64,000 bases of DNA, from NCBI RefSeq assembly GCF_054482525.1, contig NZ_CM137006.1. One strand, 5' to 3'. Under the pieces are notes generated by a model. The model saw nothing but the letters and a program-made list of their open reading frames with translations. It searched no databases and was not told the origin of the DNA. Position numbers and translations under genes: made by a program. Shown piece after piece: positions 32,718 through 38,050 of this stretch; position 1 is the first letter of the stretch, and each line of letters begins with the position of its first letter.

Positions 32718-34373
32718 ATGACTAATCTTCCCCACTGGTGGCAAAACGGCGTTATCTACCAGATTTATCCAAAGAGTTTTCAGGACACCACGGGTAGCGG
32801 CACCGGCGATTTACGTGGCGTTATCCAGCGCCTGGACTATCTGCATAAACTGGGCGTTGATGCCATCTGGCTAACCCCCTTTTATGTCTCTCCCCAGGTT
32901 GATAACGGTTACGACGTAGCGAACTATACGGCGATTGATCCCACCTACGGCACGCTGGACGATTTTGACGAACTGGTGACACAGGCAAAATCGCGCGGGA
33001 TTCGTATCATTCTCGATATGGTGTTTAACCATACCTCTACCCAACATGCCTGGTTTCGCGAGGCGCTGAACAAAGCAAGCCCTTACCGCCAGTTTTATAT
33101 CTGGCGCGATGGAGAACCAGAAACGCCACCGAACAACTGGCGTTCAAAATTCGGTGGTAGTGCGTGGCGCTGGCATGCGGAAAGCGAACAGTACTATTTG
33201 CATCTCTTTGCACCAGAACAGGCGGATCTCAACTGGGAGAATCCAGCGGTACGCGCAGAGCTGAAAAAAGTCTGTGAGTTCTGGGCCGATCGTGGGGTCG
33301 ACGGGTTGCGCCTGGATGTGGTGAATCTGATCTCCAAAGACCCGCGTTTCCCTGATGACCTGGATGGCGACGGGCGTCGCTTCTACACCGACGGGCCACG
33401 AGCACACGAGTTTTTGCACGAGATGAACCGCGATGTGTTTACGCCACGCGGGTTAATGACCGTAGGTGAAATGTCCTCCACCAGCCTTGAGCATTGCCAG
33501 CGATACGCGGCTCTGACAGGCAGTGAATTGTCGATGACCTTTAATTTTCATCACCTGAAGGTCGATTATCCCGGTGGTGAGAAATGGACGCTGGCTAAAC
33601 CTGACTTTGTGGCGTTAAAAACATTGTTCCGCCACTGGCAACAAGGAATGCACAACGTGGCATGGAATGCCTTGTTCTGGTGTAACCACGATCAGCCGCG
33701 CATTGTTTCTCGCTTTGGTGATGAAGGTGAATACCGCGTGCCTGCGGCAAAAATGCTGGCGATGGTGCTGCATGGCATGCAGGGAACGCCATATATCTAC
33801 CAGGGCGAAGAGATTGGCATGACTAACCCACATTTCACGCGCATTACTGACTATCGCGACGTGGAGAGCCTCAATATGTTTGCCGAGCTGCGCAACGATG
33901 GGCGTGATACCGACGAGTTATTGGCAATCCTCGCCAGTAAATCCCGTGACAACAGTCGCACACCCATGCAATGGAGCAACGGCGATAATGCCGGGTTTAC
34001 GGCTGGCGAACCGTGGATTGGCCTGGGCGATAACTATCAGGAAATCAACGTAGAAGCCGCGCTGGCCGATGAGTCCTCGGTGTTTTACACCTACCAAAAG
34101 TTAATCGCACTGCGTAAGCAAGAAGCCGTCCTGACATGGGGCGATTACCAGGATCTGCTGCCAAACAGTCCTGTATTGTGGTGCTATCGCCGTGAATGGA
34201 AGGGGCAAACCTTGTTGGTCATTGCCAACCTTAGCCATGAGATCCAACCCTGGCAGCCAGGGCAAATGCGCGGCAACTGGCAGCTTGTGATGCATAACTA
34301 CGAAGAAGCCTCACCACAACCCTGTGCCATGACTTTACGGCCTTTTGAGGCTGTCTGGTGGTTACAGAAGTAA
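32718..34373 (+). CDS. treC: trehalose-6-phosphate hydrolase
   Basis: Start MTNLPHWWQNGVIYQIYPKSF (551 aa), GH13 family; the ORF-track start 32571 lies inside treB. Confidence 0.94.
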   Translation: MTNLPHWWQNGVIYQIYPKSFQDTTGSGTGDLRGVIQRLDYLHKLGVDAIWLTPFYVSPQVDNGYDVANYTAIDPTYGTLDDFDELVTQAKSRGIRIILDMVFNHTSTQHAWFREALNKASPYRQFYIWRDGEPETPPNNWRSKFGGSAWRWHAESEQYYLHLFAPEQADLNWENPAVRAELKKVCEFWADRGVDGLRLDVVNLISKDPRFPDDLDGDGRRFYTDGPRAHEFLHEMNRDVFTPRGLMTVGEMSSTSLEHCQRYAALTGSELSMTFNFHHLKVDYPGGEKWTLAKPDFVALKTLFRHWQQGMHNVAWNALFWCNHDQPRIVSRFGDEGEYRVPAAKMLAMVLHGMQGTPYIYQGEEIGMTNPHFTRITDYRDVESLNMFAELRNDGRDTDELLAILASKSRDNSRTPMQWSNGDNAGFTAGEPWIGLGDNYQEINVEAALADESSVFYTYQKLIALRKQEAVLTWGDYQDLLPNSPVLWCYRREWKGQTLLVIANLSHEIQPWQPGQMRGNWQLVMHNYEEASPQPCAMTLRPFEAVWWLQK

Positions 34374-34384
34374 ATCTTCGCTAA

Positions 34385-34415
34385 GCCCCGGTAATGCCTG
34401 TCATTCCGGGCTTTT
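34385..34415 (+). terminator. putative treC terminator
   Basis: Hairpin gccccgg ... ccgggc followed by TTTTG. Confidence 0.45.
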
Positions 34416-34766
34416 GCCTGTCAGTATGTTGTTTTTGTTGATTTTATAATCAAAAAATTCATTAAAAAATTTACATATCGTTGTAGCGCCCGTCATCCGT
34501 ACGCTCTGCTTTTTACTTTGAGCTACATCAAAAAAAGTTCAAACATCCTTGATGCAAAGCACTATATATAGACTTTAAAATGCGTCCCAACCCAATATGT
34601 TGTATTAATCGACTATAATTGCTACTACAGCTCCCCACGAAAAAGGTGCGGCGTTGTGGATAAGCGGATGGCGATTGCGGAAAGCACCGGAAAACGAAAC
34701 AAAAAAACCGGAAAACGCCTTTCCCAATTTCTGTGGATAACCTGTTCTTAAAAATATGGAGCGATC

Positions 34767-36905
34767 ATGACACCGCATGTGATGAAACGAGACGGCTGCA
34801 AAGTGCCGTTTAAATCAGAGCGCATCAAAGAAGCGATTCTGCGTGCAGCTAAAGCAGCGGAAGTCGATGATGCCGATTATTGCGCCACTGTTGCTGCGGT
34901 TGTCAGCGAGCAGATGCAGGGCCGCAACCAGGTGGATATCAATGAGATCCAGACCGCAGTTGAAAACCAGCTGATGTCGGGTCCATACAAACAACTGGCT
35001 CGTGCTTACATCGAGTACCGTCACGATCGCGACATTGAACGTGAAAAACGCGGTCGCCTGAACCAGGAGATCCGTGGTCTGGTCGAGCAGACCAACTCCT
35101 CGTTACTCAACGAAAACGCCAACAAAGACAGCAAGGTGATTCCAACCCAGCGCGATCTGCTGGCCGGGATCGTGGCTAAACACTATGCACGCCAGCACCT
35201 GCTGCCGCGTGACGTGGTGCAGGCACATGAACGTGGTGATATTCACTATCACGATCTCGATTACTCGCCGTTCTTCCCGATGTTCAACTGCATGTTGATC
35301 GACCTGAAAGGCATGCTGACCCAGGGCTTTAAAATGGGGAACGCCGAGATTGAACCGCCGAAGTCGATCTCTACGGCAACCGCTGTAACTGCGCAGATTA
35401 TTGCTCAGGTCGCCAGCCATATTTATGGCGGCACCACCATTAACCGTATCGATGAAGTGCTGGCACCGTTTGTCACCGCCAGCTACAACAAACATCGCAA
35501 GACCGCAGAAGAGTGGAACATCCCGGACGCCGAAGGCTACGCTAACTCTCGTACCATCAAAGAGTGCTACGATGCCTTCCAGTCGCTGGAGTACGAAGTA
35601 AACACCCTGCACACCGCCAACGGTCAAACACCGTTTGTGACCTTTGGTTTTGGTCTGGGCACCAGCTGGGAATCGCGCCTGATTCAGGAATCTATCCTGC
35701 GTAATCGTATCGCAGGCCTCGGTAAAAACCGTAAAACTGCGGTGTTCCCGAAACTGGTGTTTGCGATTCGCGATGGCCTGAACCATAAAAAAGGCGATCC
35801 GAACTACGACATCAAACAGCTGGCGCTGGAGTGCGCAAGCAAGCGCATGTATCCGGATATCCTGAACTACGATCAGGTAGTGAAAGTCACCGGTTCGTTT
35901 AAAACCCCGATGGGCTGCCGCAGCTTCCTCGGCGTGTGGGAAAATGAAAACGGCGAGCAGATCCACGATGGTCGTAACAACCTCGGCGTGATCAGCCTGA
36001 ACCTGCCGCGTATTGCTCTGGAGGCAAAAGGCGATGAAGCCACCTTCTGGAAGCTGCTGGATGAACGTCTGGTGCTGGCACGTAAGGCGCTGATGACCCG
36101 TATCGCTCGTCTCGAAGGCGTGAAAGCGCGCGTGGCCCCGATCCTCTATATGGAAGGTGCTTGTGGCGTGCGTCTCAATGCTGACGATGATGTTTCTGAA
36201 ATCTTCAAAAACGGTCGTGCGTCTATTTCGCTGGGTTACATCGGCATCCACGAAACCATTAACGCGCTGTTCGGCGGCGAGCATGTTTACGACAACGAGC
36301 AGCTTCGCGCGAAAGGTATCGCGATTGTTGAACGTCTGCGTCAGGCGGTGGATCAGTGGAAAGAAGAAACGGGTTATGGTTTCAGTCTCTACAGCACGCC
36401 AAGTGAAAACCTGTGCGACCGCTTCTGCCGTCTCGATACCGCTGAGTTTGGCGTGGTGCCGGGCGTGACCGATAAAGGTTACTACACCAACAGTTTCCAC
36501 CTTGATGTGGAGAAAAAGGTGAACCCGTATGACAAGATCGACTTTGAAGCGCCTTACCCGCCGCTGGCGAACGGTGGTTTCATTTGCTACGGCGAGTATC
36601 CAAACATTCAGCACAACCTGAAGGCGCTGGAAGATGTCTGGGATTACAGCTATCAGCATGTACCGTATTACGGCACCAATACGCCGATCGATGAGTGCTA
36701 CGAGTGTGGCTTTACCGGTGAGTTCGAGTGCACTAGTAAAGGCTTCACTTGCCCGAAATGTGGTAACCATGACGCCTCCCGTGTGTCGGTGACTCGCCGC
36801 GTGTGCGGATATTTAGGTAGCCCGGATGCACGTCCGTTTAACGCTGGTAAGCAGGAAGAAGTTAAGCGCCGCGTTAAACATTTGGGAAATGGGCAGATCG
36901 GTTAA
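34767..36905 (+). CDS. nrdD: anaerobic ribonucleoside-triphosphate reductase
   Basis: 712 aa; C-terminal glycyl-radical motif and zinc-ribbon cysteines. Confidence 0.97.
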   Translation: MTPHVMKRDGCKVPFKSERIKEAILRAAKAAEVDDADYCATVAAVVSEQMQGRNQVDINEIQTAVENQLMSGPYKQLARAYIEYRHDRDIEREKRGRLNQEIRGLVEQTNSSLLNENANKDSKVIPTQRDLLAGIVAKHYARQHLLPRDVVQAHERGDIHYHDLDYSPFFPMFNCMLIDLKGMLTQGFKMGNAEIEPPKSISTATAVTAQIIAQVASHIYGGTTINRIDEVLAPFVTASYNKHRKTAEEWNIPDAEGYANSRTIKECYDAFQSLEYEVNTLHTANGQTPFVTFGFGLGTSWESRLIQESILRNRIAGLGKNRKTAVFPKLVFAIRDGLNHKKGDPNYDIKQLALECASKRMYPDILNYDQVVKVTGSFKTPMGCRSFLGVWENENGEQIHDGRNNLGVISLNLPRIALEAKGDEATFWKLLDERLVLARKALMTRIARLEGVKARVAPILYMEGACGVRLNADDDVSEIFKNGRASISLGYIGIHETINALFGGEHVYDNEQLRAKGIAIVERLRQAVDQWKEETGYGFSLYSTPSENLCDRFCRLDTAEFGVVPGVTDKGYYTNSFHLDVEKKVNPYDKIDFEAPYPPLANGGFICYGEYPNIQHNLKALEDVWDYSYQHVPYYGTNTPIDECYECGFTGEFECTSKGFTCPKCGNHDASRVSVTRRVCGYLGSPDARPFNAGKQEEVKRRVKHLGNGQIG

Positions 36906-37062: not shown

Positions 37063-37527
37063 ATGAATTATCATCAGTACTATCCTGTCGACATCGTCAA
37101 CGGCCCCGGCACTCGCTGCACCCTGTTTGTCTCCGGGTGTGTTCATGAATGCCCCGGTTGCTATAACAAAAGCACCTGGCGGGTAAATTCCGGTCAGCCA
37201 TTTACCAAAGCAATGGAAGACCAGATCATTAACGATCTGAATGACACTCGCATCAAACGCCAGGGGATTTCCCTCTCCGGCGGCGATCCGCTGCATCCGC
37301 AAAACGTGCCGGATATTCTGAAACTGGTACAACGCATCCGCGCCGAATGTCCGGGTAAAGACATTTGGGTGTGGACAGGCTATAAACTCGACGAACTCAA
37401 CGCTGCGCAAATGCAGGTTGTTGATTTGATTAACGTACTGGTCGACGGCAAATTTGTGCAGGATTTAAAAGACCCTTCCCTGATCTGGCGCGGCAGCAGC
37501 AATCAGGTGGTGCATCATTTGCGTTAG
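37063..37527 (+). CDS. nrdG: anaerobic ribonucleotide reductase activating protein (radical SAM)
   Basis: 154 aa; radical-SAM cysteine motif CVHECPGC. Confidence 0.95.
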   Translation: MNYHQYYPVDIVNGPGTRCTLFVSGCVHECPGCYNKSTWRVNSGQPFTKAMEDQIINDLNDTRIKRQGISLSGGDPLHPQNVPDILKLVQRIRAECPGKDIWVWTGYKLDELNAAQMQVVDLINVLVDGKFVQDLKDPSLIWRGSSNQVVHHLR

Positions 37528-37818
37528 TCACTCATCCAGCCGTTTAGTCGCGTCTTCATAAACGGCTGAGTTCTCTCTCTTACCAATAGCTATCACCAAC
37601 ACGAGCAACTCTTTATCGTTAACCTGATAAACCAGGCGATATCCCTGTGTGCGCAGCTTAATTTTGTAGCAGTCCGGTAAATCCCGCAGTTTAGCCGATG
37701 GATTGCGCGGCCTTTTCAGCACATCCTCAAGCTTTTTTTTAAATTGTTCCCGGACTGTCACGCCCAGTTTTTGCCACTCTTTCAGCGCCCGCGGATCAAA
37801 CGCCAGCTCATAGTTCAT
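37528..37818 (-). CDS. RelE/StbE-family type II toxin (mRNA interferase)
   Basis: 96 aa from MNYELAFDPRALKEWQKLG...; closely resembles K-12 RelE (MAYFLDFDERALKEWRKLG...DCYKIKLRSSGYRLVYQV...). The ORF-track entry 37528..37896 over-extends the N-terminus. Confidence 0.8.
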   Translation of the reverse strand: MNYELAFDPRALKEWQKLGVTVREQFKKKLEDVLKRPRNPSAKLRDLPDCYKIKLRTQGYRLVYQVNDKELLVLVIAIGKRENSAVYEDATKRLDE

Positions 37819-38050
37819 CCAGTCGGACCTTAATGGCCTCTTGTGGGTTGGCCAGTCGTTCCCTGACAGTGCGTAACAAGGCTTCTTCACTATCACTGAC
37901 AGTGAGCGTTTTTACCGGCATTCGTCCATTTTCCGCAACGTACTGAAACAGCAGTCGCACTGCTTCAGTAGGCGTGATATTTAATTTTTCCAGCACCGCA
38001 TAAGCCTCATTTTTCAGTTTGTCATCCAGGCGGACGTTAAGTGTGGCCAT
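37808..38050 (-). CDS. RelB/DinJ-family antitoxin
   Basis: 80 aa MATLNVRLDDKLKNEAYAVLEKL... resembling RelB; overlaps the toxin start by 11 nt; GGAGGC RBS upstream. Confidence 0.8.
   Translation of the reverse strand: MATLNVRLDDKLKNEAYAVLEKLNITPTEAVRLLFQYVAENGRMPVKTLTVSDSEEALLRTVRERLANPQEAIKVRLDEL

Follow-up and report, generated by a model that had tools for sequence, protein, structure and literature searches.

The nrdDG operon codes for the oxygen-sensitive (class III) ribonucleotide reductase and has been studied in Escherichia coli K-12 (Boston & Atlung 2003; Torrents et al. 2007; Roca et al. 2008; Myers et al. 2013; Rozman Grinberg et al. 2025; and a DnaA ChIP-seq study of 2024). An FNR ChIP-seq peak lies at nrdD in this strain, with a predicted site, TTGATGTAGCTCAA, that has a PatSer score of 15.68 and an ln p of -14.45, against a threshold of -10.75 (PMC3688515). 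The differential-expression table of that study lists nrdD and nrdG at 0.36 and 0.27, respectively. A 54-mer containing both FNR sites of the promoter binds two FNR dimers, as seen by SEC-SAXS, and the sites are centred at -33.5 (site 1) and -64.5 (site 2) (PMC10425943). According to Roca et al. 2008, as quoted in PMC10425943, site 2 is the tighter of the two and is necessary and sufficient for activation, the contribution of site 1 being only additive. The authors of PMC10425943 describe the mechanism of nrdD activation as 'a remaining mystery'. Other tandem-site FNR promoters, such as those of yfiD, ndh and cydA, resemble nrdD in that their two boxes face the same side of the helix, the distal one being strong and the proximal one weaker. 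Unlike them, nrdD has its sites at -64.5 and -33.5, positions that are neither canonical class II (-41.5) nor usual class I.

Two further proteins bind in the same region. NrdR, together with ATP and dATP, binds a 57-mer from the nrdD promoter with a Kd of ~160 nM (PMC12176259), and an overlap between NrdR box 1 and an FNR site has been noted for Salmonella. DnaA gives a ChIP-seq peak with a 62-fold enrichment ~79 bp upstream of the nrdD ATG, and a 'double DnaA box', tTTAAGAACAggTTATCCACAg, is listed at nrdD in the same 2024 study (PMC11317965). In addition, the amount of NrdD protein is increased in DARS2 deletion mutants, and genomic SELEX with RpoD lists, between treC and nrdD of K-12, a 'constitutive promoter' with the elements TTTTCA-16-AAAAAT. 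The nrdAB promoter of E. coli shares with nrdDG the combination of NrdR boxes and a pair of DnaA boxes, which ties both reductase operons to nucleotide pools and to the replication initiator. The two differ in that nrdAB is FNR-independent and has its DnaA boxes upstream of the promoter, whereas those of nrdDG are in the transcribed leader. In what follows, protein binding, the position of the start site and the mutational hierarchy of the FNR sites are taken from these papers, while the coordinates of the sites, their scores above chance, the identity with K-12 and the conservation across Enterobacteriaceae were computed here.

The DNA analysed is a stretch of 64,000 nucleotides (64 kb, hereafter the window) from E. 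coli. Positions 34374-34766 are the spacer between treC, whose stop codon ends at 34373, and nrdD, whose ATG is at 34767. The gene order is treR-treB-treC, spacer, nrdD-nrdG, all on one strand, according to the RefSeq annotation of the identical stretch of E. coli PCN033, with which the list of open reading frames agrees. A 501-bp region around the spacer is 100% identical to PCN033 and was found in 5425 out of 5426 complete E. coli genomes, as a single copy and always between treC and nrdD, with an overall identity of 95-99% in most of them. The preliminary description of this locus had presented the spacer as long (393 bp) and AT-rich, and its composition bears this out, with 39.9% G+C compared to 50.4% for the whole window and 31% between 34420 and 34620. 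Taking together the evidence presented below, the spacer is almost certainly the known nrdDG regulatory region, where FNR, NrdR and DnaA bind. This control element is already known in detail, its major sites having all been mapped in K-12. The features located in the spacer and the adjoining genes are collected in Table 1.

Table 1. Features of the treC-nrdD spacer and the nrdDG operon (window coordinates; positions relative to the transcription start where given).
Feature	Coordinates	Strand	Position	Score or basis
Probable treC intrinsic terminator, hairpin then TTTT	34383-34415	+		Fold -14.7 kcal/mol, z -1.9; flagged by the terminator scan
Conserved block A, TGTTTTTGTTGA-N8-TCA(A/G)	34431-34453			Footprint
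14-mer from the TTGAT at 34438	34438-34451			FNR matrix -11.5 bits, no match
Conserved block B, AATTTACA	34468-34475			Footprint, 57 sequences
Conserved block C, G+C-rich, AGCGCCCGTCATCCGTAC	34485-34502			Footprint, 57 sequences
FNR site 2, TTGAGCTACATCAA	34518-34531		Centre -64.5 (published)	17.8 bits, rank 1 of 64 kb
FNR site 1, TTGATGCAAAGCAC	34549-34562		Centre -33.5 (published)	10.7 bits, rank 9 of 64 kb
NrdR box 1	34559-34574		-30 to -15	Exact match to the published 57-mer
nrdD promoter -10 hexamer, TAAAAT	34576-34581	+	-13 to -8 from the inferred start	Conserved in the footprint
Transcription start	34589	+	+1	Inferred from the published centres -33.5 and -64.5 (34555.5 and 34524.5)
NrdR box 2	34590-34605		+2 to +17	Exact match to the published 57-mer; conserved
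TAnnAT motif, TATAAT in E. coli	34614-34619	+	+26 to +31	Conserved across genera
Perfect DnaA box, TTATCCACA	34655-34663	-	+67 to +75	
Perfect DnaA box (34732-34740) and adjacent weak box (34743-34751)	34732-34751	-	Just 5' of the ribosome-binding site	
Shine-Dalgarno, GGAG	34758-34761	+	5 nt 5' of the nrdD ATG	Conserved
nrdD, anaerobic ribonucleoside-triphosphate reductase, 712 aa	34767-36905	+		List of open reading frames; RefSeq annotation of the identical PCN033 sequence
nrdG, activating enzyme, 154 aa, second gene of the operon	37063-37527	+		List of open reading frames; RefSeq annotation

Several observations concern the surroundings of this region. The hairpin that follows treC is probably its intrinsic terminator, a function assigned from the fold and the terminator scan, and its sequence is little conserved between genera. 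An open reading frame of 57 aa on the minus strand (34605-34778) was rejected as spurious, as it overlaps the unconserved nrdD leader. In the locus tags of PCN033, RS23440 is skipped between treC (RS23445) and nrdD (RS23435), which suggests that the spacer once had an annotated gene, withdrawn later. On the other side of the operon, a RelE/RelB-DinJ toxin-antitoxin pair is encoded on the minus strand at 37528-38050 of the window, directly 3' of nrdG and before cybC; in K-12, nrdG is followed by a cybC pseudogene and the RelE/RelB-DinJ module is not annotated between them.

The preliminary description had also proposed the spacer as a candidate FNR control region, on account of TTGAT-type half-sites around 34437 and 34549, while considering that no canonical site could be placed with confidence by eye. 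The spacer contains four TTGAT or ATCAA pentamers (TTGAT at 34438-34442 and 34549-34553, ATCAA at 34449-34453 and 34527-34531), where ~1.2 are expected. This enrichment is mild, since at least four were present in 157 out of 5000 dinucleotide shuffles (3%). Searching the 64 kb for the consensus TTGATNNNNATCAA with up to two mismatches was uninformative, as it returned 50 matches compared to 35 expected. Both of these figures would suit a reading in which the pentamers occur by chance in A+T-rich DNA and the spacer lacks a specific FNR site. The matrix scan suggested in the preliminary description was run with a matrix built from 62 ChIP-supported sites given by Myers et al. 2013 (PMC3688515, Table S6), from which the nrdD site was excluded and which was made symmetric; the lowest-scoring of its training sites has 11.8 bits and their median is 15.3 bits. 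The best match in the entire window was FNR site 2, a TTGAT-N4-ATCAA sequence with one mismatch that had been overlooked by eye. It scores clearly above threshold and above the median of the ChIP-supported sites (17.8 versus 15.3 bits), a value attained by only 2 out of 5000 dinucleotide shuffles of the spacer. The outcome that the preliminary description had named as refuting its proposal, a spacer devoid of FNR matrix matches above threshold, was thus clearly not obtained. This site is the reverse complement of the site predicted in K-12, TTGATGTAGCTCAA, lies under the published ChIP-seq peak (PMC3688515) and is conserved across genera. The chance reading is, therefore, already refuted, and we assign it practically no probability. 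The FNR control region was correctly proposed, with its strongest site being one that had escaped notice.

FNR site 1 lies exactly 31 bp from site 2, and a pair of FNR sites at this distance appeared in none of 5000 shuffles of the spacer. By itself it is weaker than the weakest training site (10.7 versus 11.8 bits). Its left arm is the TTGAT at 34549, so one of the two half-sites named initially is indeed half of an FNR site. The other one, at 34438, is not: the 14-mer that begins there scores as a non-match and the spacing of its arms is wrong, as discussed below.

Alignment to the K-12 promoter, which the preliminary description had suggested along with the matrix scan, showed that all the known nrdD sites are identical in the two strains. 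There are twelve SNPs between the window and K-12 MG1655 in 421 aligned bp, and none of them falls in a known site. The treC terminator region accounts for four of them and a cluster at 34446-34454 for five; the other three are at 34481, 34538 and 34701, so that only the last two lie within 34482-34780. The K-12 nrdDG promoter is the same locus, its FNR sites 1 and 2, NrdR boxes, -10 hexamer, DnaA boxes and ribosome-binding site being base-for-base identical to those of the window. The published 54-mer bound by FNR differs from the window by a single SNP, 34538, located between the two FNR sites. At the five clustered SNPs, K-12 has TTGATTTTTCAACCAGC and no palindrome, whereas the window strain has the perfect palindrome TTGATTTTATAATCAA.

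From the published centres of the two FNR sites, the transcription start would be at position 34589 of the window, equivalent to position 4462838 of the K-12 chromosome (NC_000913.3), giving the nrdD leader a length of 178 nt. This position is consistent with a published promoter fragment described as '87 bp until TSS'. The promoter has a good -10 hexamer (TAAAAT) and no recognisable -35. A sigma-70 scan of the spacer reported a sole match, on the minus strand (34590-34561) and within the palindromic region of the NrdR boxes, where 0.9 matches are expected by chance. The -35 of the promoter obtained by RpoD SELEX falls in the polymorphic patch and is absent from the window strain.

The 57-mer bound by NrdR is found intact in the window from position 34554, and consists of a 5-nt flank, a 16-bp box, a 15-bp linker, a second 16-bp box and another 5-nt flank. 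The locus thus contains an NrdR operator, with two palindromic boxes of 16 bp and a linker of 15 bp, within the 15-16 bp required. From these boxes, located on either side of the -10 and the start, NrdR with bound ATP and dATP would repress transcription. Box 1 and the right arm of FNR site 1 have 4 bp in common and, therefore, the repressor and the activator can compete there.

We fetched 80 nrdD loci from Enterobacterales genomes and derived a phylogenetic footprint from the 450 bp upstream of the ATG in the window and 56 of these loci (57 sequences), almost all of them from Enterobacteriaceae. Among the 57 sequences, conservation is 90-100% at the FNR sites, the NrdR boxes, the -10, the DnaA boxes and the ribosome-binding site, and is lacking in the treC terminator region and in the stretch of leader that separates the DnaA boxes. 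Of the 80 Enterobacterales loci, 75 contain an FNR site that scores 11.8 bits or more. Tandem FNR sites exactly 31 bp apart were found in 51 out of 55 Enterobacteriaceae loci, while in the 25 loci of other families (e.g. Yersinia, Serratia, Pectobacterium, Hafnia and Edwardsiella) there is only one FNR site, a strong one. The tandem arrangement is, hence, specific to Enterobacteriaceae. Unlike in E. coli, the promoter-proximal site (TTGATGCAAATCAC) matches better than the distal one in 44 of the 51 tandem loci; a G in the proximal site weakens the match in both E. coli and E. albertii. Two loci, those of Escherichia sp. ESNIH1 and Pseudescherichia vulneris, have a leader that is ~105 bp shorter, their FNR sites being at -144 and -113 relative to the ATG. 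Both lack perfect DnaA boxes, and P. vulneris keeps CGTGGATAA.

The window contains only two perfect DnaA boxes in its 64 kb, and both are in the nrdD leader, in the same orientation and 77 bp apart; two such boxes were not obtained in any of 20000 shuffles of the spacer. The upstream box is ~100% conserved and its flanks are not. The downstream box and its neighbour correspond to the 'double DnaA box' of the ChIP-seq study, tTTAAGAACAggTTATCCACAg being the reverse complement of 34731-34752. With two perfect boxes and one weak neighbour, the leader has the make-up of a DnaA-bound regulatory region. Two perfect DnaA boxes are a conserved feature of nrdD leaders throughout the order Enterobacterales, in a variable arrangement. 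In Enterobacteriaceae the boxes are direct repeats separated by 77-78 bp. Most loci of other families have a convergent pair, TTATCCACA ... TGTGGATAA, separated by 55-56 bp, with the upstream box abutting NrdR box 2. In the leader, DnaA would tie the supply of reductase to the initiation of replication. The rise of NrdD in DARS2 mutants suggests repression by DnaA-ATP, and we infer that DnaA-ATP most likely represses nrdD or acts as a roadblock.

The leader is unusually long, and this length could point to an RNA element acting in cis within its 178 nt, for instance a riboswitch or an attenuator. We consider this highly improbable. At E values of up to 1, Rfam returned only two matches, both at chance level (16-20 bits compared to gathering thresholds of 46-50), and four orthologous loci gave no match. 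The fold of the leader is no better than that of its shuffles (z -1.2). Moreover, the sequence between the DnaA boxes is unconserved and the conserved parts of the leader are DNA boxes. An Rfam hit to STnc410 at 34403-34470 was rejected, given its score of 16 bits against a gathering threshold of 50 and its absence from the loci of Salmonella, Citrobacter, Enterobacter and E. albertii.

Upstream of the FNR sites, the footprint revealed three further conserved blocks (A to C, Table 1), which span -160 to -90 and whose sequence and spacing to the FNR sites are kept in most of the 57 sequences. The distance of block A to nrdD is constant in most Enterobacteriaceae, and in genomes that lack treC, or have it farther off, the blocks still lie 330-335 bp from the ATG of nrdD. 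Since they keep their distance to nrdD without treC nearby, they belong to nrdD. Block A includes the perfect palindrome of the window strain (34438-34453, TTGAT-N6-ATCAA), to which the first of the half-sites named initially belongs. With its perfect TTGAT and ATCAA arms, and a left arm and T-tract that are conserved across Enterobacteriaceae, this palindrome might be taken for a third FNR site, or a site for another member of the CRP/FNR family, acting from ~-143.5. However, its TGA and TCA cores are 8 bp apart, instead of the 6 bp of FNR and CRP sites, and the FNR matrix gives it -11.5 bits. The right arm is absent from K-12, where FNR control is nonetheless normal, and it is missing in most E. 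coli. This arm is a polymorphic hot spot within the species, differing in K-12 and in most genomes: the patch 34418-34480 has at least 99% identity to the window in 703 out of 5425 E. coli genomes (~13%) and 80-90% identity, i.e. ~7 of 63 positions different, in 3632 (67%), the K-12-type allele being the commoner one. We, therefore, regard a third site of this family as very unlikely.

Neither was block A taken for a hairpin. Symmetric changes of TTGA..TCAA to TCGA..TCGA occur in a few genomes, most changes are uncompensated, and the pattern was not read as covariation. The aligned hairpin of Buttiauxella is probably the terminator of the upstream gene.

It is possible, and we put it forward tentatively, that the module 34431-34502 is a platform for a further protein that modulates nrdDG, with IHF, H-NS or an ArgR-like protein as candidates, in addition to FNR, NrdR and DnaA. 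The conservation of blocks A-C, their fixed spacing and their anchoring to nrdD argue for it. In most genera block A reads GTTGAATAATTAATCAGA, which is one mismatch from the ARG-box consensus and also close to WATCAR-N4-TTR, the IHF consensus. H-NS is also named among the nrdDG regulators in one sentence of a review. On the other hand, the second ARG box is poor and the polymorphic right arm of block A argues against a strong constraint. In the K-12 FNR study (PMC3688515), enrichment of IHF, H-NS or Fis is not listed over the nrdD FNR site. ArgR as the specific candidate at block A was rejected as unsupported: its case consists of the likeness to the consensus, and nrdD and treC go unmentioned in the main text of the ArgR ChIP-exo paper.

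The footprint also highlighted a TAnnAT motif downstream of NrdR box 2, a perfect TATAAT in E. coli, in which nearly all genera retain T1, A2 and T6 and differ at the inner bases. Such constancy of T1, A2 and T6 is the pattern expected of a -10 hexamer, and the motif might be the -10 of a second, or even the main, nrdD promoter with a start near 34626, which we judge unlikely. FNR centred at -33.5 is in an atypical position for activation. With a start near 34626, FNR site 1 would be at ~-71 (class I), site 2 at ~-102 and NrdR box 2 over the -35 region, a geometry that we likewise judge unlikely. The published start stands against it, as does the 87-bp fragment ending there, which has been reported as FNR-responsive, though weak. 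Also, the sequence 17 bp upstream of the motif (CCCAAT) does not resemble a -35, the promoter scan did not report 34614-34619, and the motif may instead be what is left of a DnaA box, the TTATCCACA that adjoins NrdR box 2 at this position in Yersinia, Serratia and Pectobacterium. That the nrdDG region holds more than its known sites, with the upstream module binding an additional regulator and the TAnnAT motif marking a second promoter, is conceivable, albeit rather doubtful. If true, the second promoter would put the FNR sites at class I-type distances (~-71 and ~-102) and would help to explain the activation by FNR at '-33.5'.

Considering the published promoter, with its inferred start at 34589, the following picture would apply to the window strain. 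Without oxygen, dimeric [4Fe-4S]-FNR would occupy the two tandem sites, whose separation of 31 bp corresponds to roughly three turns of the helix. Activation would require the strong upstream site (34518-34531, -64.5), and the weak promoter-proximal site (34549-34562, -33.5) would boost it only when 34518-34531 is occupied. The locus is a textbook oxygen-responsive promoter that supplies DNA precursors in anaerobic growth, and the analysis has little import beyond its correct annotation. The comparative footprint is of modest added value, with a tandem FNR arrangement specific to Enterobacteriaceae, DnaA boxes conserved order-wide and two extra conserved elements. The latter could be of interest to work on how FNR activates from atypical positions.
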